A DNA stretch of 64,000 nucleotides from contig OZ220741.1 of assembly GCA_965116885.1 (NCBI GenBank), positions 2,336,001 through 2,400,000 on the forward strand, read 5' to 3'. Below are positions 13,324-57,419 of the stretch, one piece after another. The translations under genes were made by a program, and so were the position numbers. The first letter of the stretch is position 1. Every line of letters begins with the position of its first letter. The notes beneath the pieces were generated by a model. That model was not told where the DNA came from. It searched no databases and worked only from the letters and a program-made list of their open reading frames with translations. This stretch comes from Candidatus Latescibacterota bacterium (GTDB lineage: Bacteria > Latescibacterota > UBA2968).

Positions 13324-14856
13324 ATGTCAAATATTCTTCTCGATAAACCCGATATCGAATTGCATCTTAAAACGCTCGGCTTTGATAGAGAGCTTGCTTA
13401 TAGACTCTGGTGTTACCGCAATGGATTGGATACCGGTCTGGACAAGACCGCTGCTCAACGTCAGGCGGAAATTGATCTTTTGCAACGCGAGGTTGAGCAG
13501 CGCGATCCCGATGTTAGTCCGAGACACAATGCCCATCGCGCCAAATTTATTGCCCGTATCTTTAAAGGCGAGCTTCAGGACGAGACTGTCTCCGATTTGC
13601 TCTTTCGCATTCGCGCGATTTACAATAATCTCGATGGTGATCCCGATGCACAACGAGCATTGGGTCGTCTGGTTCTGCATGTTGAAAAATATGGCGACTT
13701 GATGCGGCCCGCACGCGCTTGCAAGCGTTTTGGTCATACGGTTGTCAATACCTATATCGCCGCTTTTGAGCAACTCGCTCGCAATCACGCGGATTGGATT
13801 CGGCCCGTTGAGGATTGGCGACCTAATAGCTATAAACCAGCGCACCAATTCTATAGCCTTGCGCGTCATCTTCTGGCACAATACGATGTGCCCACATTTT
13901 TTGATACGGCATTTTTGCAGGGCAATACACCAAAGGCGCGACAGGAACAAGCGTGGTTCATTCACGTTGGCATGGGGCAAAATATCCGCACAGCCGGTGT
14001 GCCTATGCGGATTACAAAGCGCATGGCGCATTTGCTTTTGCAAGAAAAACGCGGTTATCACACGGTTGTTCAGTGTCTTCGCAAGGTTCAGTATATAGCT
14101 TATGGCGGCAATCCGAAAAGTGCATGGGAAATTGCCCAGGGGCCGCTGGGGGAAGGATTCGAGAACGAAGATTTTTGGGAGACTGTTGTCCATTTTCTCG
14201 CCAATCAGGCTTTTCTCGAACGCAGCTATATCAATCCCATTATCGACTATATCCGCAATCAAAAATTCACGCCTCAGCGCATTCCGCAACCCGATGGCAC
14301 GGAGATCGAAGGTCCGCCGCCACATCCCAATTTTTGCATGAAGGGGCGCAGTATTAACAAGCTTCTCCGCCAGGTCGATGTATGGCATCAAGAGCTTACG
14401 GGTTTGGAAGATGTCGAGTTGGAAATCTGGGCGTCTTCTGGATTCAGGGAGTTTGAACACGTGACGCTGGATCCCAGGCTCAAACGCAATATTCAGTGGA
14501 CGGTTCACGAACTCATTACTTCGCAACAACTCTATGCCGAGGGGCGCATTATGCATCACTGCGCGGGGTCTTATGCCAAACGCTGTGCGGCGGGTGAGCG
14601 ATCTCTCTGGTCTTTGCGCGCGCTCGATCTCGACGCTGAGGAGGAAAATCAGGTGCAGGAGCATGTGCTTACCATTGAGGTCGATAATAAGAAAAAATCC
14701 GTCGTTCAAAACGCTGGCAAATTCAATCTCAAACCCTTTGGCAAAAAACATCTCGCCAAACAACGCCAAACGGGGAATGTCTATCTCCATCTCCTCCGCG
14801 AGGCGCCGACGATTATGCGTCTGTGGATGAATCGCGAAGGGTTGTCCCATGGATAG
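13324..14856 (+). CDS. PcfJ-like domain protein
   Basis: C-terminal WHQEL...HELITSQQLYAEGRIMHHCAGSYAKRC...SLWSLR...LTIEV pattern typical of PcfJ domains. Confidence 0.75.
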   Translation: MSNILLDKPDIELHLKTLGFDRELAYRLWCYRNGLDTGLDKTAAQRQAEIDLLQREVEQRDPDVSPRHNAHRAKFIARIFKGELQDETVSDLLFRIRAIYNNLDGDPDAQRALGRLVLHVEKYGDLMRPARACKRFGHTVVNTYIAAFEQLARNHADWIRPVEDWRPNSYKPAHQFYSLARHLLAQYDVPTFFDTAFLQGNTPKARQEQAWFIHVGMGQNIRTAGVPMRITKRMAHLLLQEKRGYHTVVQCLRKVQYIAYGGNPKSAWEIAQGPLGEGFENEDFWETVVHFLANQAFLERSYINPIIDYIRNQKFTPQRIPQPDGTEIEGPPPHPNFCMKGRSINKLLRQVDVWHQELTGLEDVELEIWASSGFREFEHVTLDPRLKRNIQWTVHELITSQQLYAEGRIMHHCAGSYAKRCAAGERSLWSLRALDLDAEEENQVQEHVLTIEVDNKKKSVVQNAGKFNLKPFGKKHLAKQRQTGNVYLHLLREAPTIMRLWMNREGLSHG

Positions 14857-29954: not shown

Positions 29955-30055
29955 ATACGTCTCCTGAGAAAGGCTTTGTGTCTTATGTTGACAGCGACTA
30001 TCCGCTGCGGTATCATTGGGTATTCACAAACTGTTTGTCGATGGGGAATGCGTTC

Positions 30056-31048
30056 ATGAATCGGTTCTTACAGATTTGGTTGGTCTGTTTCGCGGTCGCC
30101 TGCGGTTCGTCCGATAAGGGTCTCCAGCCCGAAGATATCCCTGTTTTATCTGAGGGCGATATTTTGCTCACAGATGCCGCCCAGCGCGCGCTGTTTCGCA
30201 TCCATCCCGGTACGGGAGATCGCACCGTTGTCACCGACCGCATCGGCGGTGTTCCCCGACAGATCGCCCGGGATGCCAATGGCGACCTTCTGATGACGCT
30301 CTCTGGAAGCGGTCTGCCCATTGTCCTGCGGTTCGATGTCCGAACGGCCGATCTTTTTATTGTGTCTTCAAGTGGTAGCCCCGTTGATCCCAATGTTCCG
30401 ATCATCGGTTCAGGTCCCGCGTTTTTGGGACCGGTCGGTCTGGTGCGAGAATCATCTGGACAACTCATAGTCGGCGATCAGCCATCTGCTACTATTTTTC
30501 GCGTTGATCCCAATAGTGGCGACCGCGCGGTTGTCTCTGGTCCCAGCCGGGGCGATGGACCCCCCTTTACTGGCCGTATCAAGCAGTTTGCCCTGGAGGC
30601 CGATGGCAATCTCCTATTGGTGGTTGGCTCAGTTTCGCAGGGGGGCGAGGGACGTATTTTTCGCATTGATCCCAACAGTGGAGATCGCGCGGTTGTCTCT
30701 GGTCCAGAAATGGGTGAGGGACCCCGATTGATGGATCCGGAAGGCATTGTTCTGAGTACCCTTAACACCATTTTTGTCACGGATATCGGTCAGGCAGCTG
30801 TTATTCAAATCGATCCTATCAGTGGCGACCGCACCATCATTTCAAGCCCTTTTATGGGTGGGGGTGAATTGCCCGATATTCCCTCTGGTCTCGCTTTTAA
30901 TACGCTCGATCAACTCCTGGTGGCAGATCGCACCGTTATCTACCGCGTGGATATCGATACTGGTGATCGCACGGTTATTTCGGCTCCCGTCATTGGTCAG
31001 GGCGAACCTTTTCTGGTGGCGGATGATATTTTTGTGATTAAGAATTGA
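30056..31048 (+). CDS. Lipoprotein with NHL-like beta-propeller repeats
   Basis: Lipobox AVAC; recurring (I/V)FR(I/V)DPxSGDRxV(V/I)S units. Confidence 0.75.
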   Translation: MNRFLQIWLVCFAVACGSSDKGLQPEDIPVLSEGDILLTDAAQRALFRIHPGTGDRTVVTDRIGGVPRQIARDANGDLLMTLSGSGLPIVLRFDVRTADLFIVSSSGSPVDPNVPIIGSGPAFLGPVGLVRESSGQLIVGDQPSATIFRVDPNSGDRAVVSGPSRGDGPPFTGRIKQFALEADGNLLLVVGSVSQGGEGRIFRIDPNSGDRAVVSGPEMGEGPRLMDPEGIVLSTLNTIFVTDIGQAAVIQIDPISGDRTIISSPFMGGGELPDIPSGLAFNTLDQLLVADRTVIYRVDIDTGDRTVISAPVIGQGEPFLVADDIFVIKN

Positions 31049-31049
31049 T

Positions 31050-32600
31050 TTATCTGGCCTTTTTGTTCTGAATCATTTTCAGGCCCTGCCGTGCGTCCGG
31101 ATGGGTCGGGTCGATTTGAACCGCGCGTTCGAAATACACCTGTGCCGAGTCTGCTCGGCCCTGATTGAGCAATAGCGTTCCCAACCTCACATGGCCGTCG
31201 TAGAACCGGGGTGACAGCTCGATTGAGCGGCGAAATGCCGCTTCTGCACCCGCCGTATCCCGGAATCTTTCCAGAGCCATTCCCAGGTCGTAATGCGCCG
31301 TGAAAAGCGTGGGTTCCAGGTCGAGGGCTTTTCGAAACTGGGCAATGGCAAGGCCGAGAAATCCCCGCCGCTCCAGTGCATATCCGATTTGTAAATAGGC
31401 TTCTACATCTCCGGGAGCCAGCGCGTCGGCTGCTGCTTGCTCTCGTGCGGCCAGGTCCATCCGACCATTTCCCGCGTGGCGCGCCGCCCGCTCCAGGTGC
31501 ATCATATAGACTTCGCACTGCCGGCTCAATGCCACTCCCGAGCGATAAACGCCCAATCCGATGCCCACAAATAATGCGATCACGCCGATGCGGAAAAGCC
31601 ATTGTCTGCCCCACCAGGCACGGCCCTGCAGGAATAAGACCGCAGCTACCGGTGATGTGACAAAACCTGTACCGAATCCTTCAGCTATCCAGGCGACAAT
31701 CGCAGAGGCCAGAATATAGGGCATGGATACTTTTGGCAATGCCATTAGGCATAGCAGGGCGAGGGGGATCAGCGAAATTAGCAGGTCTGGTCGTCCGCCA
31801 ATGCCCACCTGCGCCACGACCATTACCGCAGTGAACAGGCCTATGCACACCCACATCAATGCGTGCCGCGACCTGTGCTTGCTTTCGGCTGTTTCCACAG
31901 TTGTTGAGCCTGCACCGGTCAGTGCCAGAACGCCCAGAGCCAGGATGCTTATCCAGTGCCAGAGTACAAAGGGTTGCGTGGGCACCGCGCGTGAAATTGG
32001 TTCGGAAAACAGATGTAAAAACAGGTGTAAAAGAAATACGCCCCACAGCGCGTGCGCCCAGATCCTGCGCCGATGGGGCGTACAGAATGCCAGAAAATAG
32101 GGGATAAAGAACTCAAATCCCACCGCAAACCACTCCGCTATCCCCACAGTTGGTACACCGACAAAAAAACGGTTATGCGTCGGTATGCTCCACACCCACC
32201 AACCTGCGGCTGCTGCTCCGCCTTCTACCCCATATCCCACGGCCGCCATTCCCACGCAAGTCATCCCCACCGTGGCCATCATATCGCCTTTAAGTGCAGG
32301 TATCCGCGCCAACACCCGCTCTGCCAGCCACCAGCTTACATAGAGGGCAAAAATCCATCCGATTACCGCTTGTAAAGATGCTGAAAATATCTGCACCACC
32401 GGCTGCGTGAATACATAGGGCATCACGCCGCCCTGCGATTCGACTGTGATCCAGTGAATCACATTTCCCCGCACGACGCCAAACAGAAACGCCGAGATAA
32501 AAAAGCTCAGCGCAATGCGGCGGCCCCGATGGGACCAGGCGTGCCACATCAGCAGGGCTATTGCCACAGCAGAGGGCACAAAAAGCAGAAGCGTTTTCAT
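31050..32600 (-). CDS. Polytopic membrane protein with a CruF-like (carotenoid biosynthesis/hydratase) N-terminal domain and C-terminal TPRs
   Basis: HAWSHRG...FLFG, MPYVF, WWVW...FFVGVP...EWF resemble CruF; about 4 TPRs at the C-terminus. Confidence 0.6.
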   Translation of the reverse strand: MKTLLLFVPSAVAIALLMWHAWSHRGRRIALSFFISAFLFGVVRGNVIHWITVESQGGVMPYVFTQPVVQIFSASLQAVIGWIFALYVSWWLAERVLARIPALKGDMMATVGMTCVGMAAVGYGVEGGAAAAGWWVWSIPTHNRFFVGVPTVGIAEWFAVGFEFFIPYFLAFCTPHRRRIWAHALWGVFLLHLFLHLFSEPISRAVPTQPFVLWHWISILALGVLALTGAGSTTVETAESKHRSRHALMWVCIGLFTAVMVVAQVGIGGRPDLLISLIPLALLCLMALPKVSMPYILASAIVAWIAEGFGTGFVTSPVAAVLFLQGRAWWGRQWLFRIGVIALFVGIGLGVYRSGVALSRQCEVYMMHLERAARHAGNGRMDLAAREQAAADALAPGDVEAYLQIGYALERRGFLGLAIAQFRKALDLEPTLFTAHYDLGMALERFRDTAGAEAAFRRSIELSPRFYDGHVRLGTLLLNQGRADSAQVYFERAVQIDPTHPDARQGLKMIQNKKAR

Positions 32601-32613
32601 GGCTCCTCTTGTT

Positions 32614-33573
32614 TTATATCAGGATGTCCGATTGCGTATGGGGTGCGTGGTTTTTGATAAACCAGAGATAGAGCACCTGACTGTAGGAAAAAAATACCAT
32701 CTGTTTTCGGTGAAAAAAGGGTTCCAGTTCTTTTTGCAATTTCCGCAGGTTGTAAAATGGCACGCCCGGAAAATAGTGGTGTTCCAGGTGATATGTCGAA
32801 AACAGATAGAGAAAATTCCACATCCAATTGGCCCGCATGAGGGTTGTCCAGTTGGCGATTTCATCCGGGTTTATCACATAGTGCTGTCCCAACCGGTTGA
32901 CCGTAAAAGCAATGGGAAAGATAAAAAATACCGGAAAAAGATGCGCTTTGAAAGCAAACCACGGGTCCAGCGTCCAGAACCACGTCAGGATTCCCAGGTG
33001 CAGGATGATTCCCACTGTGCGTTCTCGTTTGATCTGGCGGCACAGTTGCTCTGGATAGCTTTTGAAGGTTTCGGCTACTGCCCGAAAATAAATGGGGAAT
33101 AGCATTGGCGTGCAGTAAAGCAGCTTGAACCACGGCGAGTTGATGCGGGGGGACAGGTGCGCGCGTTTGGGGTCGGCGTGCGTCGAACCCAGGTGATCGT
33201 GATGGTCCAGATGCCACCGCTTGAACTGTGAAAATGCCAGTCCTGAAATCCACCCGTACACGAGTCCCAGGAGGTCGTTGAGGCGGGGCTTCTTGCGGAA
33301 AATGCACCGGTGTACGGATTCGTGTAGCAAAACGGAGAAGCTGAAAATCGCGAATCCCAATAGTACGCTTGCGGGAAACCAGGCCCAGAATGAATCGACG
33401 TGGTAAATCCAGATTGGTAGCCCGACCAGCAGTGCTGTCTGCCGGAAGGCGATCCAGAAGTGCCGCCAGGGCCGCCGCTGGTGCAGGTCTGTCAGCCGTT
33501 CTTCTGGTATTGCTGCCCGCAGTTCCCGGTTTAAGTCTCGCGCATGGTCGTGATATGTCAGTTCCGCCGCCAT
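32614..33573 (-). CDS. Membrane fatty-acid-desaturase superfamily di-iron enzyme
   Basis: Three His boxes HESVH, HLDHH, HLEHH followed by FPGVPFYNL; start at ATG 33573 behind GGAGG. Confidence 0.9.
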   Translation of the reverse strand: MAAELTYHDHARDLNRELRAAIPEERLTDLHQRRPWRHFWIAFRQTALLVGLPIWIYHVDSFWAWFPASVLLGFAIFSFSVLLHESVHRCIFRKKPRLNDLLGLVYGWISGLAFSQFKRWHLDHHDHLGSTHADPKRAHLSPRINSPWFKLLYCTPMLFPIYFRAVAETFKSYPEQLCRQIKRERTVGIILHLGILTWFWTLDPWFAFKAHLFPVFFIFPIAFTVNRLGQHYVINPDEIANWTTLMRANWMWNFLYLFSTYHLEHHYFPGVPFYNLRKLQKELEPFFHRKQMVFFSYSQVLYLWFIKNHAPHTQSDILI

Positions 33574-33587
33574 GGCAAACCTCCGCG

Positions 33588-34469
33588 TTAGCCGATTGCA
33601 AATACACACACAAACCCCACATGTCCCGCCATCAATAGCAAATACATGTGTTTCCACGAGATGTGATTGGATTCAAATGTCAATGCTTCGGGGCGCTTCA
33701 ACATCAACCAGCCGACATACCCACCCCAAAGTGCCAGAGAGCCAAGCCACTGCGCGCTCGACGGTACCCATTCCCACATTGCGCCAATGGGAATGAGCGC
33801 AAAAGGCAATACCAGAAAAGGCAGTATCAGCCAGGCTGCTCGCCGAGGTCCCAATAGCACGGGTAGGGTCTTCATGCCGTAGGCGCGGTCTCCTTCCACA
33901 TCTACGAAATCTTTGGTATTGCTGGCGCCAAACACGTAGAGGCCGAATACCAGGCCCACAAACCAGGGTGCCGGGTGCCATATAGGTTCCACAGCCGCCC
34001 AGCCGCCCACGGGTAGCAAACACCCCCGTCCAAATCCCAGTGCCAGGCTCGAAGAGAGTGCGTGCCGTTTTAGCCGCAGGGGCGGTGCTGAATAGGCCAG
34101 TGTGAGCAATGCGCCCACCGCGAAGATGCCCAGCAAGCGGGGATGTACCAGATAGGCAAGGCCCAGGGCGATGATATAGCACGCGGTTCCCAGCAGTGCT
34201 GCCCCCCGCATGGATACGCTCCCCGAGGGCAAGGGGCGGGTGGGTTTGTTGATTCGATCAATTTCCAGGTCGCAGCACTGGTTGATGATGTTCGATCCCG
34301 CATTCAGGATTGTAACTGCCAGCGTGCCTACCAGGCCTGCTGTTGGGATCTCTCCACCGGTGGCCATTGCCGATCCCGCGAGAAATCCCACGGCAGGTGC
34401 CAGTAGTGTGAATGGGCGCGCGAGTACCACAAAGGCGCGGAATCCATTTTGTTCCATAGAATTGCTCAT
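33588..34469 (-). CDS. UbiA-family prenyltransferase (DGGGP synthase / ChlG-like motifs)
   Basis: RPFTL, NQCCDLEIDRINKPTRPLPSG, YSAPPLRLKR, KDFVDVEGDRAYGMKTLPV. Confidence 0.9.
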   Translation of the reverse strand: MSNSMEQNGFRAFVVLARPFTLLAPAVGFLAGSAMATGGEIPTAGLVGTLAVTILNAGSNIINQCCDLEIDRINKPTRPLPSGSVSMRGAALLGTACYIIALGLAYLVHPRLLGIFAVGALLTLAYSAPPLRLKRHALSSSLALGFGRGCLLPVGGWAAVEPIWHPAPWFVGLVFGLYVFGASNTKDFVDVEGDRAYGMKTLPVLLGPRRAAWLILPFLVLPFALIPIGAMWEWVPSSAQWLGSLALWGGYVGWLMLKRPEALTFESNHISWKHMYLLLMAGHVGFVCVFAIG

Positions 34470-36892
34470 TCGCTTTGGGCCTTTGCTCCCTGCTTATCCA
34501 CTACGTAAAAACGGGCTGTTTTGTACACTTCAATGTCGCGGTTTAGATCTTTTACGGCGACGACTACTTCGTGTTGTCCGGGTGCGATGTCTCCCAAATC
34601 CAGTTCTACAAAATTTTCGCTTTTCGTTTGTGTGCCCGTCTGCTCGTATCGAATCGTCACCTCTTCTCTGCTACCGCCCGATAGCATCCGACCCAGTCCG
34701 GACAGCGCGCGGATCAGCAGCGGCGTATGGTTGGCGTCTCGCACTGTATAGGCGACTTCGTAGCGCGTTTGTCCAAACGAGTCGCGCAACAAATTGTAGA
34801 TTTCAAAATAAATAAAAAATGATGTTTCCTGGTAAAATATCCGACCCGGTGAGGGATCTACCCGGAAGCCCGATCTCACAAACTGGCCCGCGGTTCCCGA
34901 ATCTATCTGAGCCACTGCACGGGCTACCTGAATGCCGCTGACCATCAGTGTATCCCGGTTGTATGAAACTACCGGTACAGCTTTTTGATAAACGCCCATC
35001 AAATCCGCTTCTGGTCGCCAGACTTGAACGGCGAGCGTATAATCGCCTGGCGGTACGTCCATTGGAAATTCTTCTACCAGTACGGATCTGCTGCCTCGCG
35101 GTGCCATGACTTCAACATCGCCCTGTACGCGATAGACCTGTCCAGAGCGCTCGTTGATCAGGGCGACCCGCCGCTGTACCTGCGCCGTGTCGCTGGCACC
35201 CTGTACATAGAGGTTGCGGGTGGGTACTCCCATAAATACCCGAATTTCTGTATTGTCGTCTGTTCCCATAAAATCCACTGTATCAAAATGAAAATCCAGT
35301 GGTTCGTAATAACTGATGTTATAGACCTCGGGCACATCCCGGGTGATGCGGGGCATGAAGACGGTTGGCGAATATTCCGAGAACAGGCGCGATATCCGCA
35401 GTGTCTGGTCGTGTCCAAAACGTTCCAGTCGGTCCCGGTCTTCTGTGGTCAGAACGGGCGGTGGCGCGTAATCGTAACGCCCGGAGGTAAATTCGTCGGT
35501 AAATACCACTTCGATGCCTCCGCCGATGCGGGTGTAAAACCACACTTCCCATTTTACGGTCATCCCGGCAATGCCCGTTGTCACGGGTTTGTACCCGTAA
35601 AATCCCAGGGTGTCTTCAGCCGCCATGCCCGCGCGGGCTTGCATGGAGCCTTCAAAGGGCATGCGGGGCAGGTCGTCCAGTTCGGGGTTGTCTTCGTCGA
35701 TGATGTTTATAAATCGTTCTGTTTTCACTGGATATACAGGTCCCAGAAACGTGTGGTGTACACCATCGGGACCGTAGAGCCGGCGGGCGAGTTCCGTCTG
35801 GATGATTCCGACAGATTGGGGTACGTTGAGGTTTAATGAGCGGGATGTCGAGCGGTGGTCTGGTTCCCCGTAGCGGATATAGACCTCACCTCGCCGATCA
35901 TAGGGGAACTGCTTTCGTCCGTAGTTTTCCCGCGCATAGAGTACCCGCCGATAATGCTCGCACCAGCGCATCAGCCCGCCACTGGCTTTCAGGGGGTCTT
36001 TTCTCAGCCAGAATCGCCGCAGGAAATCGCGCTGCCGCTCTGGTGGGGTTTGTCGATAGGCCTCCGCTTCCCTGGGTGTCGCCACTATCGAAATATCCCA
36101 GTAGAGTCCTCCCTCCTCTTCGGATAGCGTAGAGATATATTCTTCAAAAGCGATGAGCGCGTCTTCGAAGTTGCCCCGCTCCATGAGTATTTGTCCCAGG
36201 ATCGCATAGCCTCGCGGGTCTTCCAGCCGACCCAGCAGGCGTTCGGCTTCTGCCTTTTTGCCCGATTCGGCCAGGCTGCGGATAAACAGGTAGGCCGCTT
36301 CCTGGTCTTTGGGCTGGCGCTTGAGGTACTGGTCGTAATAATGAATTGCCACTTGATCCAATTTGTCGTCCTGGTAGAGCTGACCCAGTAGCAGATATCC
36401 CGGTGCGTATTCGGGATCGATCTGGATCGCCCGTCCCGCCGCTTTTATGGCATTTCCGGTTTCCGATATTCGATAGAGGCGGGCGAGGTGGTAATACACT
36501 TTTGCCTGGGTCGAGTCCAGTGCTACCGTCTTTTGCAAATGAGAGCGGGCACCCCGCCAGTCGTTTTTCAGATCCAGGTAGGCCAGCCCCAGCCCCAGGT
36601 GCGCTTCCACCCACCCCGAATCGGCCTGTACTGCTTTGCGAAATGCTTTGATAGCGTCGTCGGCCTGTTTAGATTGGAGGTGAAGTTGTCCGATCATGGT
36701 CAGCACCCGCGCAGGCTGGGGTTGTTGCCCGGCGATCTTTTCCAGATTTTTGACGGCCTGTTTTATACTGTCTTTGTGCGAGACTTGTAATGCCCGGGCG
36801 TAAATCGATTCGGCGTCCTGGGCATGTACCGTTCCGGTTCCGCACAGTCCGATAAAAAGGCTAAGCGCAATATAAAAATAATAATTTTTCAT
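34466..36892 (-). CDS. TPR + GWxTD-domain secreted protein
   Basis: Signal peptide; N-terminal TPRs; FLRRFWLRKDP, EHYRRVLYA, DRRGEVYIRYGEPD, WEVWFY; Ig-like C-terminus. Confidence 0.82.
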   Translation of the reverse strand: MKNYYFYIALSLFIGLCGTGTVHAQDAESIYARALQVSHKDSIKQAVKNLEKIAGQQPQPARVLTMIGQLHLQSKQADDAIKAFRKAVQADSGWVEAHLGLGLAYLDLKNDWRGARSHLQKTVALDSTQAKVYYHLARLYRISETGNAIKAAGRAIQIDPEYAPGYLLLGQLYQDDKLDQVAIHYYDQYLKRQPKDQEAAYLFIRSLAESGKKAEAERLLGRLEDPRGYAILGQILMERGNFEDALIAFEEYISTLSEEEGGLYWDISIVATPREAEAYRQTPPERQRDFLRRFWLRKDPLKASGGLMRWCEHYRRVLYARENYGRKQFPYDRRGEVYIRYGEPDHRSTSRSLNLNVPQSVGIIQTELARRLYGPDGVHHTFLGPVYPVKTERFINIIDEDNPELDDLPRMPFEGSMQARAGMAAEDTLGFYGYKPVTTGIAGMTVKWEVWFYTRIGGGIEVVFTDEFTSGRYDYAPPPVLTTEDRDRLERFGHDQTLRISRLFSEYSPTVFMPRITRDVPEVYNISYYEPLDFHFDTVDFMGTDDNTEIRVFMGVPTRNLYVQGASDTAQVQRRVALINERSGQVYRVQGDVEVMAPRGSRSVLVEEFPMDVPPGDYTLAVQVWRPEADLMGVYQKAVPVVSYNRDTLMVSGIQVARAVAQIDSGTAGQFVRSGFRVDPSPGRIFYQETSFFIYFEIYNLLRDSFGQTRYEVAYTVRDANHTPLLIRALSGLGRMLSGGSREEVTIRYEQTGTQTKSENFVELDLGDIAPGQHEVVVAVKDLNRDIEVYKTARFYVVDKQGAKAQSE

Positions 36893-37062
36893 TGTGTTGT
36901 GTTCACAAGATATGTGATCCTTCGCAAGGTGTCTCTAAAGTATAACAAAAAACCAAAATGGAATCGCTGTTTTTTCGTGCTGGTCTTTCTTCAGTTAAGG
37001 CTGCAATTGCATTTTTTTGCTACACGCCTTAGATTGTGGATTGAACTGTCCAGGAGCTTTCC

Positions 37063-39081
37063 ATGCGTGTCATTATTTTATTTTTCATTTTGCTAATACC
37101 TCTATCGGCTCACAGTCGCCCGGTGGTCGCGGTTTTGCCTTTTGAAGAGGCGAATACCGATTGGCTCTCAGAGGGTATGGCCTGGAGTTTGTCGGATAAG
37201 CTCCGCCGCGTGTCGGCACTGCAAATGGTCGATTCCGACCGGCTGAATGCCGCTCTGTCTAAATATCAGATGCCTGTGCAGATTGGCCAGTCGGCGGGTG
37301 CAACACTGGTTCTGTACGGTGCCTGTCGGCTGCAGAAAGACCAGCTTCAGATCTCTGCCCGCGTTTTGCGGGTTGATACCGATGAGGTTCTGGATCTGGG
37401 AGAGGTGGGAGGTCCGACCGCGTCTCTGTTTGCCCTGCAGGATAGCGTGATTCGCCGCTTCCTGGACGGTGTTGGTCTCAGTGCTACCGATAGCGAATGG
37501 GAGGCGATTCTTCGCAAACCCACTCATTCAGTTCAGGCTTATGCCCACTGGGTGCGCGCCCGGAGTATGCTGACTGGCGATGCCGAGGATCCGGATGTTG
37601 TGCGCGATCACCTCGACCGCGCCCTTGCCGAGGATGCCGATTATGCCGATGCCCATAGCCACCTGGGGTTGCTTTTTGTCGCGCAACGCCGGTTCAAAGA
37701 AGCGCTCGGTGCCCTGCAGACCGCTGTGCGTCTCAAGCCGGATGATCCACTGATCCGCTACAATCTGGGGGTGACTTATGCCAGTTTGGGGCAGCCCGAT
37801 CGCGCTGCTGTCGCGTTTCGGGATGCGATCCGCCTCGTGCCGGATGATCCCATTACCCACTACAATCTGGGTATTCTACACTATCTTCAGGGCAATCACG
37901 AGGCTGCTATTGCGCCTTTGCAGACGGCGGTTCGTCTCAAGCCAGATTTCGCGGTTGCTTATCTAAACCTGGGTATTGTCCTGGCCAATACGCAATCCTT
38001 TTCCCGCGCGGAAGACGCACTGAAAGAGGCGATTCGCCTGTCTCCCGAAAATGCCGACGCGTACTACAATCTGGGCGTTGTCTATATCGAGATGGGGCAT
38101 GGCGATCAGGCGACCGAAGTGTTAGAGCGAGCCATCTCGCACAATCCAGAGCACGCCGATGCCCATTTTAATCTGGGGCGCGCTTATGAGGCACTGGGCC
38201 GCTATGATGAAGCCGTCGCTGCCTTCAAACAGGCGGCTCAATTCAATCCCGATTATGCCGATTTGCACTTTAATCTGGGCATTGCCCATACCGAGGCCGG
38301 GCGTTTTGAGGAGGCTATTCGCACCCTGCACACTGCCCGCCGGATCTATCCGCAAGATCCGCTTATCTATCACAATATGGGTATTGTGTATCGAAATGCC
38401 GCGCGTTTTGAAGAGGCGGAAAATGCTTTTCGAGAAGCGCTGCGTCTCAATCCCCATCTGGCCGATATTCACCTGTCTCTGGGCAGTTTGCAACTGGATA
38501 TGGGGCGCTATGAGCAGGGTCTTTCAGCCATTCGAGAGGCTGTGCGCTTGACGCCCAAAAATGCCGATGCCCACCGCTATCTGGGCGAGGCTCTGGCTTA
38601 TTTGAAGCAGTATCCAGATGCGATTCGGGCTTTCCGAAAAGCCATTGAGCTTAAGGGCGACGATGGAGAAGCCCATCTCGGCCTGGGCATGATCTATTTG
38701 CATACCGGGCAAAAAACCGCGGCTACTTCTGCTCTCAAAACGGGTCTTCGACTCAGTCCCGGACACCCCGATTCTCTGGCTATTGCCCGCGAGATCGCGC
38801 GGTTGCAGAAGCAGCCTGAGCAGGTGAGTTCCCATCTGAACCGCGCCCGCGCTTTTGAGGATGCCGGGCTTTTGGACGAAGCGATTGATTCCTATCGCAA
38901 AGCCGCCAGTCTCAGTCCCGAGAATGCCGATATTCAGCACGCCCTGGGCATGGCTTGTCTGCGGGCGAATCGTCCGGAAGACGCGCTGCCCGCTTTTCGG
39001 AAGGTTCTCGGGCTTCGTCCAGATCATCCCGATGCAAATCTCATCCGTGATTTTATTCGCCGCATGGAAGAGGGACAATGA
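37063..39081 (+). CDS. Secreted TPR-repeat protein with an N-terminal TolB_N/CsgG-like alpha/beta domain
   Basis: Signal peptide; VAVLPFE...WLSEG; more than 10 34-aa TPRs (P..A.AHxNLG). Confidence 0.85.
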   Translation: MRVIILFFILLIPLSAHSRPVVAVLPFEEANTDWLSEGMAWSLSDKLRRVSALQMVDSDRLNAALSKYQMPVQIGQSAGATLVLYGACRLQKDQLQISARVLRVDTDEVLDLGEVGGPTASLFALQDSVIRRFLDGVGLSATDSEWEAILRKPTHSVQAYAHWVRARSMLTGDAEDPDVVRDHLDRALAEDADYADAHSHLGLLFVAQRRFKEALGALQTAVRLKPDDPLIRYNLGVTYASLGQPDRAAVAFRDAIRLVPDDPITHYNLGILHYLQGNHEAAIAPLQTAVRLKPDFAVAYLNLGIVLANTQSFSRAEDALKEAIRLSPENADAYYNLGVVYIEMGHGDQATEVLERAISHNPEHADAHFNLGRAYEALGRYDEAVAAFKQAAQFNPDYADLHFNLGIAHTEAGRFEEAIRTLHTARRIYPQDPLIYHNMGIVYRNAARFEEAENAFREALRLNPHLADIHLSLGSLQLDMGRYEQGLSAIREAVRLTPKNADAHRYLGEALAYLKQYPDAIRAFRKAIELKGDDGEAHLGLGMIYLHTGQKTAATSALKTGLRLSPGHPDSLAIAREIARLQKQPEQVSSHLNRARAFEDAGLLDEAIDSYRKAASLSPENADIQHALGMACLRANRPEDALPAFRKVLGLRPDHPDANLIRDFIRRMEEGQ

Positions 39082-40696: not shown

Positions 40697-42649
40697 TTAC
40701 CATCCGTGTACAAAGTGTCCACTTCCGGGAAACCAGATCGCATCCACGACACTCGACGCTCCCACGCCCAACAGGTATCCCACTACTATTCCATAGGAAA
40801 ATGGCATCGATCGCCGGTAAAGTCCCACGCCCCCAAATTTGAGGGTCAGTGCTTTGACGAGCCATACGACAAAAATAGCGAATCCGTACGTATGACTCGG
40901 GAAGGCGAGTCCCACCGGGTGAATCGGCCAGGAAGCGAACCGGGTATTCAAGACTGTCAGCAGGCCCGCTTCTCCGACTCCGAATAGCCAGACCAGCAGT
41001 TTCTGAAAATCAAAATATGTGGGTTCTGTCCCCTCAATGATGCCTACTTGTCCCAGCATTACAGTCCAGTCGTACATATAGGCCGCGTTTAGACCGCCTT
41101 CTGTATAACACAAATAAAGCTGGGCACCGCAGGCTATGGCATAGGCGGTGAGCAGAGAGATGGGCAGAGCACATACGACCAGAAAACGGCGTTTCAGGGC
41201 TTGTTGCAATAGCCGAAAAAAATGTGGAATGGCCGGTATCGACAGCATTCGTCCCGAATGCGCGGCCAATCCGCCGCGGTTTAACACCATTATCCCCGTC
41301 AGGTCGGAGGGGGAAAAATTGGCTGTTCCCAGAAGCGTCTTGAGTATCGGTCCACCTTTCTGCCCCTGGGGTGATAGAAATACGAATCCCGTGGCTGCCG
41401 CGTATTTGGCCACGCCAAAGTAGATCACGAAAAACAGTGAAAGCTGTAGCAGTGCCGCGACGGGTCGCATGTCCAGAGATATCATCCAGCCTGTGAGAAA
41501 TGCAAATGCCGCGCTGAATCCCAGCCAGGCCGTGCGGTAGGTCACGGGCGTTCCATCGTCTTTGCTCCGGTCGTCTGATAATGCCTTTTGCAGGGTTTCT
41601 TTCAGGTGTCCTCTGGCTACCCAGACCGACCAGATCACGAGAAAGACCAGTGCGCCGTGCGCCTCAAGCATCCGAATTTCTCCCGAGGTTGCCGCCTGCC
41701 CCTGCATGCCCACTGTAAATCCCGTTCGGTCCATCAGTGCTTGTTTGAAAATATTGAGTACAAAAAAGGTCCACACGCTCAGCAGTATATTTAGCGGACA
41801 CAGGTAAGCCAATCCCATCAAAAGGGGCTGAATCCTCAGGTATAAGGTCGGAAAATCGCGCCCGATGTGTACGGCTTTGGTCAAATAGTGATCGTATATC
41901 CCAATGCGCGGAATTGTGAGAATAAAATACCCGGCAATATTCCAGAAAATCACACCGGCTGTACACGCAAAGCCCATCCAGAAAACGGGTGTTCGGAACA
42001 CGATGGGCAGTCGGTGTGAAGGTTCTTCCCGGAGCAGTTCCAGGGGCATTGTCGCCAGGGGAAATGTCAACCGTTCCCGTTCCACCCACTGTTTGTAGAA
42101 CAACACACTTGCAAAAAAGCCGGCCATTACGAGTGCTACAGTTCCGGCAAACCACCAGAACAGCGGGGTTAGCCAGTTGCGCCACGGGATGGATTCCTCT
42201 GATCCCAGTCCTACGTACAGCTTTTCTACTACCATATCTCCCGGCTCAAAAAATAGCCAGCGGGGCATATAGGCCCCCACGACCTCCCAGAATCGGTTTT
42301 CCGGTGAAGAAAAAGCGGATGGTGCTGAAATATCCGTAATCAAGTACCCGGCCCAGCCCACTGCCGGTGCGGTACCCACCATCCAGACCATTCCAAAAAT
42401 CACCATCACTTCTGTGCGCGACAGGGCAAAGCGAGGCAAAATGAGCTTTAAAACTGTGTTGATCCCCACCCACAACACCAGTGGTAGCAACGCGGTGACG
42501 GGCACGAAGCTTTTCATCAGATTTCGCCCGAAGTAGGTCGCGTACAAACACATGCCCGCAATTGTGATCAGCCCCAGTACAAAAGCCCGAATGGTGAGCG
42601 ATTCAGATGCTGTTGATGCTTTTCTTTGAGGTTCCGGTGCCGAAGCCAT
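40697..42649 (-). CDS. DUF6785/DUF6784-like polytopic membrane protein (putative transporter)
   Basis: RAFVLGL, QWVERERLTFPL, WPIHPVG, KFGG..LYRR..PF..G; many hydrophobic segments. Confidence 0.7.
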   Translation of the reverse strand: MASAPEPQRKASTASESLTIRAFVLGLITIAGMCLYATYFGRNLMKSFVPVTALLPLVLWVGINTVLKLILPRFALSRTEVMVIFGMVWMVGTAPAVGWAGYLITDISAPSAFSSPENRFWEVVGAYMPRWLFFEPGDMVVEKLYVGLGSEESIPWRNWLTPLFWWFAGTVALVMAGFFASVLFYKQWVERERLTFPLATMPLELLREEPSHRLPIVFRTPVFWMGFACTAGVIFWNIAGYFILTIPRIGIYDHYLTKAVHIGRDFPTLYLRIQPLLMGLAYLCPLNILLSVWTFFVLNIFKQALMDRTGFTVGMQGQAATSGEIRMLEAHGALVFLVIWSVWVARGHLKETLQKALSDDRSKDDGTPVTYRTAWLGFSAAFAFLTGWMISLDMRPVAALLQLSLFFVIYFGVAKYAAATGFVFLSPQGQKGGPILKTLLGTANFSPSDLTGIMVLNRGGLAAHSGRMLSIPAIPHFFRLLQQALKRRFLVVCALPISLLTAYAIACGAQLYLCYTEGGLNAAYMYDWTVMLGQVGIIEGTEPTYFDFQKLLVWLFGVGEAGLLTVLNTRFASWPIHPVGLAFPSHTYGFAIFVVWLVKALTLKFGGVGLYRRSMPFSYGIVVGYLLGVGASSVVDAIWFPGSGHFVHGW

Positions 42650-42667
42650 ATTCGCAAACCCCGTCTC

Positions 42668-45046
42668 TCAGGGCATGGGTTCTGTAATATTTACAATTTG
42701 TCCTGCGGACAGGTTTTCTACGACCTGCACTGTTCCGCTGGGCCAGATCACTTTTAGTCGGGTTGCGCGGTCGGCGTCTCCCAGGCCAAAATGGATCGTG
42801 TATGGGTCGGTTGACCCGAATCCAACGCTTCCCTGTACTTCCCGGAACAGGGTGCGGTTTCCGACTGTCAGGCGCAATTTCGTTCCCACGCCAAAACGAT
42901 TGCTTTGACGTCCTTGAAGTGTGACCTGTAACCAGCGATTCTGATTTTCCGATTCGTTGCGGTAAAGCGCGTTTTCGAATAGGTCTCCGTGGTACCATCC
43001 GCCTTGCGGTGCATATACGTCCAGGTCGCCATCTGCGTCGTAATCGGCAAATGTGATGCCGTGTCCTTTGCCCAGGTGCCCCATTCCCGCGTATTCGGTC
43101 AGGTCGGTGAATGTCCCGTTCCCGTTGTTGCGATAAAACCGGTTCGGTTCCAGGCGTCCCAGGTCCGGATCTCCCGTCCCGAAGTACACGTCCAGGTACC
43201 CGTCGTTATCCACATCTCCCACATTGCCGCCCATCACGCCGTGGGCATAGATGAATCCCGCTTCGTAGGATACATCTGTGAAGCGCCAGCCTTCGGCCTG
43301 GCCCTCGTTGCGGTATAGCTTGGGCGTTGGATAGGCCGGGTCGGTGGGCGCGGTATAGCCGGTCCGCTGTCCCTCTAAGCTCTCTTTGAATCCGGCGAGG
43401 CAGGTGGTCAGGATGTCCAGGTCGCCGTCGTTGTCGTAGTCGAAGAAGAACGATACATAGCCTCGAAGCGTGCCGCTTCCGGCGACGTTGGAAGCCCGTG
43501 CGACATCGACAAATGTGCCGTCGCCGCGGTTTCGATACAGGGCATTGGGCGTCTCGAAGCCGGTTACAAAGAGGTCCAGGTCGCCGTCTAAGTCGTAATC
43601 GCCAAAGGCTGCGCCCACTGTGCCCAGGTCAAAATGAAGGCCCGCTTCGTCTGTGGTTTCGACAAATGTTCCGTTTCCATTGTTGCGGTAGTGCGCGTTT
43701 GAGGATCCGTCTCCGGCAATGCCATTTGCGATAAATAGATCCAGGTCGCCATCGTTGTCCGTATCGCCCCACAGGGAGACAAATCCCGATCCCCCGTCAT
43801 CTGTGCCCGAAGCTGCGGATACATCGGTGAATTGGCCCCCGTCATTGCGGTAGAGCGCGTTTGGGCCAGGGCCGGACCACCCGCTGCGGGCGATGTAGAG
43901 GTCCAGGTCGCCATCGTTGTCGTAATCGACGAGATTTCCCGAGAATCCCGAATCGACGTCTTTCAGGCCGATCTGATTGCTGATATCCACAAATTGGGTT
44001 CCGTCGTTGCGGTAAAATGCGAGGTACGTGTCGCATCCCTGCGCCAGCAGGTCCAGGTCGCCGTCGCCGTCGATGTCTCCCCAGGCACTCGGTCCGGCTC
44101 CATCCAATTTGGCCACGCCCAGATCGCGGGCTACATCTGTAAAGCGCACGGGCAGGAGGGTGTCTGTGGATTCGGGGCGCTGGTCAAAGCGATAATAGGA
44201 CCACAACGACCAGGGATAACCGCCGAGTTTGTCATAGGCTTGTTTCAAGTTCCACTGGGTGCGGAAAAACCATTCGTCTGTTTCCGGCAGGGCGCGCAGC
44301 AAATTTAAGAATGTTTCGGCTGATTTTCGATACTGTCCCGCGCGGTAATAGGCCACGCCCAGGCGATCCGGTACGCGGAGATCCAGGCGGTCCTTTTGCA
44401 TTTGCATCGCTACGTTCAAGCGTTCAATTGCCGCTTCGTAATCTCCCATTCTCAAAAGGGCGAGGCCAGCCAGATAGCGCGCTTCTGCATCGTTTATGGC
44501 GTTGTCGGATAATTTATCGGCGTGGTGAAATGCGCGTTCCAGCAAGATGCGGGAGTCGTTCAGGGGCAGGATTTGTCCGCTGCTTCCCATTTTCTGATTT
44601 TCAAACCAGATGGTTTCTCCGCCCAGCAAATAGGTGACGTATTCTTTTCTCACGTCCAGCATGAGGGGTTGTTTTATGAGAGCCGCTTCAAATTGCGCTG
44701 CTGCACGGGCGGGTTCCCGCTGTGATCGGTAGAGCCGCGCGAGCCAGGTTCGCGCCTCGACTGCATCCGGATTGCGGGCTACTGCTCGCTCAAATGCGGT
44801 TATCGCTTCGGGGCGGTTTTGGATTGCGAGTACTTTGCCCAGGTGGAGATAGGCCGCGCTTTGCGTCGAGTCGATTTGAATACATCGGCGAAACTCGGCT
44901 TCGGCGGCTTCGTACTGCGCCCGCCGCATGCTTTCTATTCCCTGCTGGAGATGCGTGGTATAATCTATCCGCATGCCCGGAGAAGGTGATCTTTGCTCAC
45001 CGCATCCGATTGACAGGACAATCAGTAGCAGAAGGAGTACAATCAT
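42668..45046 (-). CDS. Lipoprotein with TPRs + FG-GAP repeats + ASPIC/UnbV (CRTAC1-like)
   Basis: Lipobox SIGC; TPRs; about 7 DYDNDGDLD-type repeats; HFGLG, WPSG; start taken at ATG 45046. Confidence 0.88.
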   Translation of the reverse strand: MIVLLLLLIVLSIGCGEQRSPSPGMRIDYTTHLQQGIESMRRAQYEAAEAEFRRCIQIDSTQSAAYLHLGKVLAIQNRPEAITAFERAVARNPDAVEARTWLARLYRSQREPARAAAQFEAALIKQPLMLDVRKEYVTYLLGGETIWFENQKMGSSGQILPLNDSRILLERAFHHADKLSDNAINDAEARYLAGLALLRMGDYEAAIERLNVAMQMQKDRLDLRVPDRLGVAYYRAGQYRKSAETFLNLLRALPETDEWFFRTQWNLKQAYDKLGGYPWSLWSYYRFDQRPESTDTLLPVRFTDVARDLGVAKLDGAGPSAWGDIDGDGDLDLLAQGCDTYLAFYRNDGTQFVDISNQIGLKDVDSGFSGNLVDYDNDGDLDLYIARSGWSGPGPNALYRNDGGQFTDVSAASGTDDGGSGFVSLWGDTDNDGDLDLFIANGIAGDGSSNAHYRNNGNGTFVETTDEAGLHFDLGTVGAAFGDYDLDGDLDLFVTGFETPNALYRNRGDGTFVDVARASNVAGSGTLRGYVSFFFDYDNDGDLDILTTCLAGFKESLEGQRTGYTAPTDPAYPTPKLYRNEGQAEGWRFTDVSYEAGFIYAHGVMGGNVGDVDNDGYLDVYFGTGDPDLGRLEPNRFYRNNGNGTFTDLTEYAGMGHLGKGHGITFADYDADGDLDVYAPQGGWYHGDLFENALYRNESENQNRWLQVTLQGRQSNRFGVGTKLRLTVGNRTLFREVQGSVGFGSTDPYTIHFGLGDADRATRLKVIWPSGTVQVVENLSAGQIVNITEPMP

Positions 45047-45047
45047 G

Positions 45048-45710
45048 TCAGACCATCCGTCCATCTGCGAGTTTTATCTGGCGGTCTGCTCGATTTGCCA
45101 GATTCAGGTTGTGCGTGGATAGCACGATTGTCACTCCTTCGGTGTGGTTCATATTTCGCAATAATGCCAAAATTTCATTTCCTCGTTTTGAATCCAGGTT
45201 GCCAGTTGGCTCATCTGCGAGCAAGATCTCGGGGTTGTTTACGAGTGCGCGCGCAATGGCTACCCGTTGCTGTTCGCCTCCCGATAGTTCTCGGGGCAGG
45301 TGATCTGATCGGTGCTGCAAATCCACGCGTGCCAGCAAGTCTCTTACCCGATTGCGTTGATGCAGGGCGCGGGAAAAGAGGAGGGGGAGTGCCACATTTT
45401 CTTCGACGGTCAATGTGGGTACCAGGCAATAGTCTTGAAATACGAAGCCCACGTGTTGCCGACGCATGGTTTCCAGGTCTTTGCCGCGCAAAGTACTCAC
45501 GTCTCGATCCAGCAATTTCAAGAGGCCCGATGTGGGGCGGTCCAGACACCCCAGAAGGTTTAACAGGGTTGTTTTTCCCGCGCCCGACGCGCCTGTGATG
45601 GCTACAAATTCGCCGGGTTCTACGATCAGGTCTATACCGGATAACGCCGCGATTTCTTCGGCTGAACGGCGGTATATGCGGGTGAGTCCCTGTGCGAGAA
45701 TAGCCGACAT
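45048..45710 (-). CDS. ABC transporter ATP-binding protein (LolD/MacB type)
   Basis: GASGAGKTT, LSGGEQQRVAIARAL, LADEPTGNLD. Confidence 0.93.
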   Translation of the reverse strand: MSAILAQGLTRIYRRSAEEIAALSGIDLIVEPGEFVAITGASGAGKTTLLNLLGCLDRPTSGLLKLLDRDVSTLRGKDLETMRRQHVGFVFQDYCLVPTLTVEENVALPLLFSRALHQRNRVRDLLARVDLQHRSDHLPRELSGGEQQRVAIARALVNNPEILLADEPTGNLDSKRGNEILALLRNMNHTEGVTIVLSTHNLNLANRADRQIKLADGRMV

Positions 45711-45711
45711 T

Positions 45712-46881
45712 TCAGCGCATCCACGCAATGGGATGCAGGCGGGAAGCCCGCCACCCCGGTATGGTTCCAGCCAGTATGCCCATGCCTGCTGCCATTGCGA
45801 TCCCGCCGATTAGTAGTATGCCATCAATTTGCACCAGTACGCCTGGGGGGGCAAATGGGAGAATCGCGCGTACGGCTTCAGATGCCAGGCGGCTGCCCAA
45901 TACCGCGATTCCGCCACCTGCTATTCCGCCTATGGTGCAGATTGTCAGTGCCTCTGCACAGATCAATGCAAATACGTCGCCCCGGGATGCGCCAATTGCC
46001 CGCATGACGCCGATTTCTCGCGTTCGTTCAAAGACCGCGATTAGCATGGTATTCATCACGCCGAGTACTGCAATTGCCACGGCTACGATGGCGACTGTTC
46101 CGATGAAAAACCGCGCGGTGCCCAGGAGGTCGAGAAGGGTTCGCTGGACCTGCGCCATGGTGATAACCTGTACCGAGGGTATTTCGAATACGCGTTCCGA
46201 AAATCCGTCTATTCTGGACAGGTCTTTTAATTTTACGCCGATGCCCGTGAGTTTTTCTTTTTTGTCGAAGAGGCGCTGCGCTACCCCAAGTGGGACGAAG
46301 ATGGTGCCGTCGTCCTGCGTTCCGCTGCGGTCAAAAATCCCGCGTACGCGGAATGTTTGTCCCAGTCCTTTGAGCGGAAAGTCATCCCCGATGTTTTTTC
46401 GATAATACGCCGCTACGCTGTATCCCAGTATGACCTCGTCGGTCGCGCTTTCGTTGAACCACTCGCCCCGCTGGAAGGTTAGCCAGGGTTTCATTTCCAG
46501 AAAGCTGTTTTCTATTCCCGTTATCAGGGAAAATCCCTCCCGGTGTACGGGAAGCGATCCGAGAAATAACCGGGTCGTGGTCGCTACATCGGCGTCTCGA
46601 AGGATTTCACGGTGGATGGCTTCGTCCATGTACATCGGTATTACCCCACCTTGCATCAGCAGGGTCGCGGCTTCGTAGGGGCATCCTTTTGAGGTGACCA
46701 GTACGTGATAACCCAGGCGGTCAATGCTGTGGATGAGGGATGTGCGGTATCCGGTTCCCAGGCCCAGGAGGCTGACCAGGACGCATACGGATAGGGCCAC
46801 GCCGCTTATGGTCAACGCGCTTCGCGTGCGGTGTCGGCGCAGTTCTTTCAGGACGACGCTTATAAATTGAAAAATGACCAA
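45712..46881 (-). CDS. ABC permease, MacB/FtsX-like
   Basis: RSALTISGV, periplasmic domain, MNTMLIAVFERTREIGVMRAIGA, PGWRASRL. Confidence 0.9.
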   Translation of the reverse strand: MVIFQFISVVLKELRRHRTRSALTISGVALSVCVLVSLLGLGTGYRTSLIHSIDRLGYHVLVTSKGCPYEAATLLMQGGVIPMYMDEAIHREILRDADVATTTRLFLGSLPVHREGFSLITGIENSFLEMKPWLTFQRGEWFNESATDEVILGYSVAAYYRKNIGDDFPLKGLGQTFRVRGIFDRSGTQDDGTIFVPLGVAQRLFDKKEKLTGIGVKLKDLSRIDGFSERVFEIPSVQVITMAQVQRTLLDLLGTARFFIGTVAIVAVAIAVLGVMNTMLIAVFERTREIGVMRAIGASRGDVFALICAEALTICTIGGIAGGGIAVLGSRLASEAVRAILPFAPPGVLVQIDGILLIGGIAMAAGMGILAGTIPGWRASRLHPIAWMR

Positions 46882-56208: not shown

Positions 56209-56235
56209 CTTTATGCCTCCTTATATAAAGAGTTA

Positions 56236-56985: not shown

Positions 56986-57369
56986 CCCTCCTTGTGACGC
57001 CCACTCAATGCGAGTGGGGTTAATTGCTAAGAAACACTATCTATTTTTATAGCTAATAAAAGTAAAACTTAAAAATAATAATGACAATTGTGATAATGGT
57101 AAGTATTAGCTTACTAAAATTTAAAACGCTTGTACTCAGATGTCAAGCGGTTTTGATACAAAAAATTCTGCCATTTGGCAGAATTGGGAATTAGTATAGA
57201 TATATACACTTATAAAAAAACGTTTATATCTGCTTATGATTATTAGTATCAACACTTCGGACGATAGCGGATAGCGTCCGTATATTTCTGTAAAATGAGG
57301 TGCGCCCCATTCTTTGACCCGGTATAAAGGCTAATGAACGGGGCTGAACATCGCCCCGTTTTACCCCGC

Positions 57370-57397
57370 TTGACATTGGGTGTCAGCGTGGTATTTT
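57370..57397 (+). promoter_or_regulatory. Sigma70-like promoter for the transposase
   Basis: TTGACA, 16 bp spacer, TATTTT with a TG extension; RBS AGGAGG follows. Confidence 0.55.
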
Positions 57398-57419
57398 CTC
57401 ACCAACAGGAGGATCTACC

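Follow-up and report, generated by a model that had tools for sequence, protein, structure and literature searches.

What would a prenyltransferase of the UbiA superfamily and a desaturase-like membrane enzyme do together in the cell envelope of a bacterium from an uncultured phylum? The question is raised by four minus-strand genes, referred to here as genes A to D, that occupy positions 31050-36892 of a 64,000-nucleotide stretch from a Candidatus Latescibacterota genome (contig OZ220741.1, positions 2,336,001 to 2,400,000; the whole stretch is called the window below). A first-pass annotation had read them as an operon that tailors an isoprenoid lipid, by analogy with the LyeJ, CruF, and CrtD genes of bacterioruberin synthesis. 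Our data fit the broad part of that proposal, a membrane-lipid, probably isoprenoid, tailoring operon, in that the UbiA protein and the His-box diiron enzyme both prove genuine. Gene B belongs to a large uncharacterized UbiA subfamily, and the membrane domain of gene D is an undescribed family, with neither a Pfam model nor a fold match in the PDB. We think it reasonable to regard the operon as a candidate for a lipid pathway not yet described, one whose conservation is narrow.

Four tightly coupled genes encode membrane and envelope proteins

In the order of transcription, gene A (34466-36892) encodes an 808-amino acid secreted protein with tetratricopeptide repeats (TPRs) and a GWxTD domain, gene B (33588-34469) a 293-amino acid UbiA-superfamily prenyltransferase, gene C (32614-33573) a 319-amino acid three-His-box enzyme of the FA_desaturase family, counted from its ATG, and gene D (31050-32600) a 516-amino acid polytopic membrane protein with C-terminal TPRs. 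Genes A and B overlap by 4 bp (ATGA). The 14-bp gap between B and C holds a Shine-Dalgarno (SD)-like GGAGG 8 nucleotides before the gene C ATG, and the 13-bp gap between C and D an SD-like GAGGAG close upstream of the gene D start. These positions and junctions agree with the tight coupling described initially. An alternative GTG start for gene C lies 84 nucleotides upstream and would extend its open reading frame (ORF) to 33657, into an overlap with gene B.

Gene B represents a putative separate UbiA subfamily

Gene B matches the UbiA family PF01040 over residues 29-260 with 156 bits, compared with a gathering score of 34.2. The two Asp-rich motifs quoted in the first reading are both present, namely the NxxxDxxxD-type motif DLEIDRINKPTRPLPSG (residues 67-83; 34221-34271) and the DxxxD-type motif KDFVDVEGD (residues 186-194; 33888-33914), and their columns are invariant or nearly so across 42 subfamily sequences. 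An alignment of gene B with 41 relatives revealed two further invariant stretches, RPFTLLAP and NH[VIP]SWKHMY, that appear in gene B as RPFTLLAP (34395-34418) and NHISWKHMY (33642-33668).

Every NCBIfam model scored gene B below its cutoff. The scores and cutoffs were 117.8/313, 102.1/212.3, and 68.3/436 for the ChlG/BchG models, 112/269 for a generic prenyltransferase, 105/226 for HPT, and 97.1/296, 84.7/353, and 45.3/278 for the DGGGPS equivalogs; the UbiA, MenA, and CyoE models reached 34-51 bits, with cutoffs of 210-364. No LyeJ/CrtEb lycopene elongase was named among 25 of the 40 NCBIfam matches of gene B. The top matches in the PDB were DGGGPS (6m31, E = 3.5e-19, residues 11-228) and chlorophyll a synthase (E = 8.9e-19).

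Using the alignment of gene B and its 41 relatives as the query, we scanned one genome per species and recovered at least 595 genome stretches that encode relatives. The locus counts given here and below rest on the best 80 of these at least 595 stretches. Eight of the 80 come from metagenome-assembled genomes (MAGs) of Candidatus Latescibacterota, in which the UbiA protein is 94-98% identical to gene B, a match that by itself places the window in this phylum. Acidobacteriota (Vicinamibacterales) supply most of the other 72 (41-49% identity), and further hosts are Omnitrophota, Planctomycetota, Eisenbacteria, Coatesbacteria, Bacteroidota, Actinomycetota, "Clostridia," and two archaeal MAGs (L024 and L027).

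We placed 32 subfamily rows in a quick maximum likelihood tree with 13 references: three ChlG, two haloarchaeal DGGGPS, EboC, four other haloarchaeal UbiA-family genes, and the UbiA, MenA, and CyoE of Escherichia coli, a set that holds no LyeJ/CrtEb, HPT, or FCB-group DGGGPS. All 32 rows fell on one side of the branch that separates them from the references, with a weak Shimodaira-Hasegawa-like approximate likelihood ratio test (SH-aLRT) support of 72. The three ChlG and two haloarchaeal DGGGPS sequences sat on separate long stems, and the three E. coli proteins lay across the split from the subfamily. The gene B protein itself grouped with Omnitrophota and Planctomycetia sequences with a support of 93. 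The low scores with the UbiA, MenA, and CyoE models and the separate group in this tree speak against a position nested within the quinone or heme prenyltransferases. Judged by its motifs, scores, and placement, gene B is best described as a member of a large uncharacterized UbiA subfamily apart from ChlG, DGGGPS, and the quinone and heme enzymes.

The subfamily is usually accompanied by DUF92, polyprenyl synthase, and radical SAM genes

Many of the 80 loci lie on short contigs, and the neighbor counts are lower bounds. A DUF92 gene (TIGR00297) lies within 300 bp of the UbiA gene in 44 of the 80 loci, a pairing that spans Acidobacteriota, Omnitrophota, Actinomycetota, and a DPANN archaeon. The plant phytyl-phosphate kinase VTE6 is a DUF92 protein. 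We found no description of the pairing of DUF92 with this UbiA subfamily in the literature searched, where a search on DUF92, UbiA, and prenyltransferases yielded only papers of the UBIAD1 type. A passage of PMC9782597 links VTE6 to COG1836.

A polyprenyl synthetase resembling farnesyl and geranylgeranyl diphosphate synthases adjoins the UbiA gene in five loci. Four loci have a "variant radical SAM" gene (NF045502, above cutoff) within 300 bp of the UbiA gene, and seven have one within 5 kb; an Rv2578c-like radical SAM gene stands within 300 bp in 11, although the acidobacterial copies of the latter may be unrelated to UbiA. The usual neighbors of the subfamily are thus DUF92, polyprenyl synthase, and radical SAM genes and not a desaturase, and these partners suggest that the donor is a prenyl diphosphate with a short chain. 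No GGGPS/PcrB-type match was found among 53 neighbors of 11 other UbiA loci.

A membrane-anchored arylsulfatase-like gene adjoins the UbiA gene in two of the 80 loci. In two "Clostridia" MAG loci (L018:2306-4144 and L036), the UbiA gene is followed directly by such a gene. An "epimerase" neighbor (within 5 kb in 32 of the 80 loci) was not relied upon, at least one such gene being a plain RmlB.

Gene C is a predicted membrane His-box diiron enzyme

Gene C matches PF00487 (FA_desaturase) with 105.9 bits, well above the gathering score of 29.7, and carries all three His boxes: HESVH (33310-33324), HLDHH (33199-33213), and HLEHH (32776-32790). The initial call of a three-His-box membrane desaturase is borne out by both observations. 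The best NCBIfam scores were far below their cutoffs (GntB, 57/380; DesA, 29/500; CrtR, 25.5/475), and a search of the PDB by sequence returned no match. The closest annotated homologs on plasmids are Ralstonia "fatty acid desaturase" genes, which share 27% identity with gene C and stand beside acyl carrier protein genes. From its family match and His boxes, we assign gene C to the FA_desaturase family as a membrane-bound diiron enzyme of the His-box type.

Gene D contains an undescribed polytopic membrane domain

The N-terminal polytopic domain of gene D (residues 1-358; 31527-32600, minus strand) has no Pfam match, even with the threshold relaxed to E ≤ 10, and the C-terminal domain (residues 367-513; 31062-31502, minus strand) consists of TPRs (TPR_2, 61 bits, and others). 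A phmmer search of 1.84 billion representative sequences placed 198 clusters in the D family at E ≤ 1e-3, 133 at 1e-10, and 29 at 1e-30. In 121 family sequences Glu-126 is invariant; it stands with the conserved GWWVW at 32190-32225. Pro-61, Gly-81, Trp-82, Trp-134, Trp-135, Trp-137, Trp-157, and Pro-279 are conserved in at least 90% of the family sequences.

We scanned 100 relatives against Pfam, taken from 147 listed (P0140-P0286) after removal of 27 shorter than 280 amino acids and 20 long ones. TPRs follow the membrane domain at the C terminus in 51, a Sulfatase domain in five, and an AraC helix-turn-helix (HTH) domain in one; 41 had no Pfam match, among them stand-alone forms of ~340 amino acids, and two had weak other matches only. 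The five proteins with a C-terminal arylsulfatase-like domain are P0178, P0192, P0194, P0197, and P0205. We rejected sulfatase as a specific link between UbiA and D, as the UbiA-adjacent and D-fused sulfatases are only 26-30% identical and too generic.

An AlphaFold2 model of the D domain (pLDDT 92.6, pTM 0.92), computed from the alignment of the 121 family sequences, contains about twelve membrane helices. Foldseek returned no match to this model in the PDB at E ≤ 0.001, with a best TM score of about 0.23, a result that disfavors the GT-C glycosyltransferase, O-antigen ligase, and MprF-like folds. Lys and Arg residues are distributed unevenly, with 12 in loops 1, 3, 5, 7, 9, and 11 versus four in loops 0, 2, 4, 6, 8, and 10. 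Based on this charge bias and the positive-inside rule, the PY pair, Glu-126/GWWVW, Trp-157, His-192, His-215, and the TPR domain of gene D are predicted to be periplasmic. A periplasmic C terminus agrees with the TPR and sulfatase fusions among the relatives.

Gene D had been described as a CruF-like membrane protein fused to TPRs. The TPRs and the polytopic nature stand, but the likeness to CruF is not confirmed. The CruF model PF04240 (Caroten_synth) had no match in residues 1-358 at E ≤ 10, nor in any of 39 stand-alone D relatives at the same threshold, nor in any of the 100 relatives at E ≤ 0.01. When the alignment of these 39 sequences served as the query of a profile search, 24 proteins were returned, none of which carries PF04240, and a tblastn search of plasmids with gene D gave no match at E ≤ 10. 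No CruF gene was found beside haloarchaeal plasmid UbiA genes, and a literature search for a cluster of UbiA, fatty acid desaturase, and CruF genes yielded nothing relevant. In the Pfam scans of the D family, we dismissed a DUF7802 match at E = 0.77 as noise.

One search gave a different ranking. A protein-language-model search with residues 1-360 placed Caroten_synth clusters first (186-189 of 256 features, the ten best named matches all being Caroten_synth) with a score of 0.78, where about a third of shuffled proteins reach 0.8. The same ranking was obtained with a 93%-identical relative, which makes this one line of evidence and not an independent confirmation.

Gene A is a predicted secreted TPR protein with a GWxTD domain

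Gene A begins with a signal-peptide-like sequence, MKNYYFYIALSLFIGLCGTGTVHAQ, followed by TPRs at residues ~25-250 (Pfam). Residues 266-351 (35840-36097) match the GWxTD domain model TIGR04514 of NCBIfam with 45.7 bits (cutoff 28). The TPRs and the domain assignment of the first reading are thus upheld, but the literal motif (GW.TD) is missing from the protein; FPYDRRGEVYIRYGEPD probably stands in its place. Residues 265-808 had no match to a Pfam family at E ≤ 10, and the C-terminal ~450 residues are without any Pfam match. A literature search for "GWxTD" found nothing. The link to surface-protein biogenesis proposed earlier has one basis only, the first place of gene A in the operon.

The gene quartet is confined to one clade, and D meets the UbiA subfamily once more in another phylum

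All four genes are intact, with 90-98% amino acid identity, in eight Latescibacterota genomes. These are the only eight of the 80 loci where relatives of gene C, gene D, and the non-TPR part of gene A adjoin the UbiA gene. Across them, the ten genes tested, which span about 20 kb, are collinear, with identities of 82-98%. In one of these loci (L005), one flank gene was not found. The synteny expected of the UbiA, desaturase, and D genes in other genomes is therefore limited to one narrow Latescibacterota clade. Of the three supports on which the original interpretation leaned, the results largely remove two, the CruF similarity and the wider synteny, and leave the third, a UbiA protein outside the quinone and heme enzymes, in place.

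A second meeting of D and UbiA occurs in an Omnitrophota MAG (L011:510-13738; contig JAUSEX010000020.1). Here, a tightly packed 13-kb cluster of same-strand genes with seven radical SAM genes reads, in order, a radical SAM/SPASM gene, a polyprenyl synthetase, a UbiA gene of the same subfamily, a variant radical SAM gene, a radical SAM/SPASM gene, four B12-binding radical SAM genes (BchE/HpnJ-like, below cutoffs), a 235-amino acid unknown, and a D-family gene (D hidden Markov model (HMM), E = 3e-14) that is incomplete at the locus end. The cluster could produce a heavily tailored isoprenoid lipid or a prenylated peptide. Because the D family is rare, finding it beside such a UbiA gene cluster in a different phylum carries weight; this single observation is the strongest indication that D and this UbiA subfamily act together. 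In addition, a UbiA protein 73% identical to gene B (P0020) and a D protein 64% identical to gene D (P0012) come from contigs of equal length (12,945 bp), which hints that the two may share one contig.

The operon may encode a clade-specific variant of a prenyl-lipid pathway

Our preferred reading, held tentatively, is that the co-transcribed four-gene membrane and envelope operon encodes a clade-specific, O2-dependent variant of an uncharacterized prenyl-lipid pathway. Gene B would take a short chain (C15-C20) of the prenyl or phytyl type from its diphosphate and attach it to an inner-membrane acceptor, gene C would use O2 to desaturate or hydroxylate the lipid made by gene B, and the products of genes D and A would bind, process, or hand on the product at the periplasmic side. 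The genes themselves, their coupling, their families, the distinct UbiA subfamily and D family, and the second co-occurrence of D and UbiA are the observations behind it.

Several results weigh against this reading. No relative of gene C from the FA_desaturase family was detected at E ≤ 0.01 in any of the other 72 loci, and among these 72 a D relative occurs in the Omnitrophota locus only, where some 10 kb separate it from the UbiA gene. Because the flanks are as collinear as the quartet in the eight Latescibacterota loci, the synteny of the quartet is not independent evidence of a functional linkage. The separation of the subfamily from the references has a support of only 72 in a quick tree. 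Among the 43 window ORFs (4 + 19 + 20) scanned against Pfam, there is no polyprenyl synthase, crt, or GGGPS-type match, in agreement with the absence of crtE/B/I and GGGP synthase genes reported at the outset, and the window contains no DUF92 gene. The SPASM enzymes of the Omnitrophota cluster resemble peptide maturases, and that cluster may make something other than a lipid. Finally, the surroundings of the operon are rich in TPR, HEAT, NHL, and FG-GAP envelope proteins, so genes A and D could be present for unrelated reasons.

This last point leads to a possible, if somewhat unlikely, alternative, that only genes B and C form an enzymatic pair and that A and D are envelope TPR proteins of unrelated role, for example in assembly or sensing, that share the transcript. 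Besides the envelope genes all around the operon, it would account for a quartet limited to one clade with wholly collinear flanks and for a gene D without a recognizable catalytic family, and the single D relative fused to an AraC HTH domain suggests a sensor-like use. However, in another phylum a D-family gene is part of a same-strand cluster that includes UbiA, the invariant Glu and the conserved Trp/His cluster of D would be less usual in a mere anchor than in a binding or active site, and the 13-bp gap with its SD-like sequence indicates that D is coupled to C.

We regard as improbable that the operon is an archaeal-type ether-lipid branch, with gene B an FCB-group DGGGPS ortholog that attaches a geranylgeranyl chain to a glycerol-phosphate lipid before gene C modifies it. 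The best solved-structure match of gene B is indeed DGGGPS, the subfamily occurs in two archaeal MAGs, and a section of PMC6431249 reports that each of the 12 FCB phyla in its survey, Latescibacteria among them, has GGGPS and DGGGPS orthologs. Against this stand the DGGGPS scores (97/296, 85/353, and 45/278), which are no better than those for ChlG (118/313) and HPT (105/226), the separate long stem of the two haloarchaeal DGGGPS references in the quick tree, and the lack of a GGGPS/PcrB-type match both in the window and among the 53 neighbors of the 11 other loci.

Least of all do we expect a carotenoid-tailoring module analogous to LyeJ/CruF/CrtD, with gene D a divergent CruF-type hydratase, a very improbable reading for which the language-model ranking speaks, at a score under the level reached by a third of shuffled proteins, and against which stand the PF04240 searches of gene D, its relatives, and the 24 profile-search proteins, the absence of a crt gene from the window, and UbiA scores that are highest with the ChlG, HPT, and DGGGPS models.

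The preferred reading, a prenyl-lipid pathway variant that includes all four genes, has a bolder extension, for which we see only a slim chance. The D family might be a new class of lipid-processing membrane enzymes at the periplasmic leaflet, possibly a very distant CruF-like hydratase, that marks, together with the UbiA subfamily, undiscovered bacterial isoprenoid membrane lipids. In anaerobes (Omnitrophota and Planctomycetota), radical SAM enzymes would tailor these lipids, and in the Latescibacterota clade a His-box oxygenase would do so.

Surroundings of the operon

A divergent intergenic region of 170 bp (36893-37062) separates gene A from a plus-strand TPR gene (37063-39081) and is presumed to be the promoter region of the operon. 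In scans for promoter and terminator consensus sequences, sites were no more frequent than in shuffled sequences, and no promoter was demonstrated; an Rfam scan of the window gave no matches. In one of the Latescibacterota loci (L006:4650-7586), this presumed promoter region contains about 2.7 kb of extra sequence, which sets gene A farther apart from the divergent TPR gene. On the other side, the stop of a convergent NHL-repeat gene (29978-31048) lies 1 bp from that of gene D (31048-31050), and with the two stops this close, a terminator cannot fit between them. The GC content of the operon (0.54-0.56) is the same as that of the surrounding 50 kb.

Farther away, a second envelope cluster (40697-46881) comprises a DUF6785/DUF6784 membrane protein, a TPR and FG-GAP/ASPIC protein, and a MacB-like ABC transporter (ATPase and FtsX permease). 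The GC content drops from ~0.55 to 0.39-0.47 across 56000-64000, where ORFs that start with TTG encode a TPR protein, a response regulator with an AraC HTH domain, and an 845-amino acid GT28/GT4 glycosyltransferase; this part of the window may be a foreign island. A plus-strand ORF of 510 amino acids with a PcfJ-like match (13324-14856) has an ORF of 507 amino acids (13327-14850) fully antisense to it.

Significance and comparison with known systems

Should the product of the operon be a prenylated membrane lipid, an uncultured phylum would contribute a further isoprenoid-lipid pathway of bacteria, and there would be a first functional handle on the UbiA subfamily, which at least 595 species genomes encode and which is usually paired with DUF92, and on the 12-helix D family. 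It would also bear on the debate over isoprenoid and ether lipids in FCB-group bacteria. The operon itself is a plausible but unproven gene-cluster prediction within one genus-level clade; the broader results are a large ChlG/DGGGPS-like UbiA subfamily paired with DUF92 and a new membrane family.

Among the systems with which the operon can be compared, the bacterioruberin genes comprise LyeJ, a UbiA-family protein, CruF, a Caroten_synth protein, and CrtD. On paper there is a likeness, as a UbiA enzyme, a polytopic membrane protein, and an oxidizing enzyme are clustered in both. However, gene D lacks Caroten_synth similarity by HMM and no carotenoid backbone gene is nearby, and the triad analogy first drawn for this locus is not supported; moreover, the oxidizing enzyme here is a His-box diiron protein, whereas CrtD is of the flavoprotein type. 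Gene C itself is comparable to CrtR/CrtW and to the arginine hydroxylase GntB, enzymes with non-acyl substrates, in its three His boxes, its FA_desaturase fold, and a top score with GntB (57 bits), but it stays far below the cutoffs for CrtR and GntB.

For gene B, there are two further comparisons. Archaeal DGGGPS (6m31), its best solved-structure match, carries out a prenyl transfer to a lipid acceptor in the membrane; unlike DGGGPS, gene B stays under the equivalog cutoffs, has no GGGPS partner at the loci examined, and has its own signatures, RPFTLLAP and NHxSWKHMY. With ChlG/BchG and HPT, gene B shares the UbiA fold, the Asp-rich motifs, and the highest NCBIfam scores (ChlG, 118; HPT, 105; BchG, 102). 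It differs from them in scoring far below the curated cutoffs, in a window without photosynthesis genes, and in the separate stem of the ChlG references. Prenyl-diphosphate salvage is paired with ChlG/HPT-type enzymes in phototrophs, and the frequent pairing of the subfamily with DUF92 in other genomes resembles this association of ChlG and HPT with VTE6.

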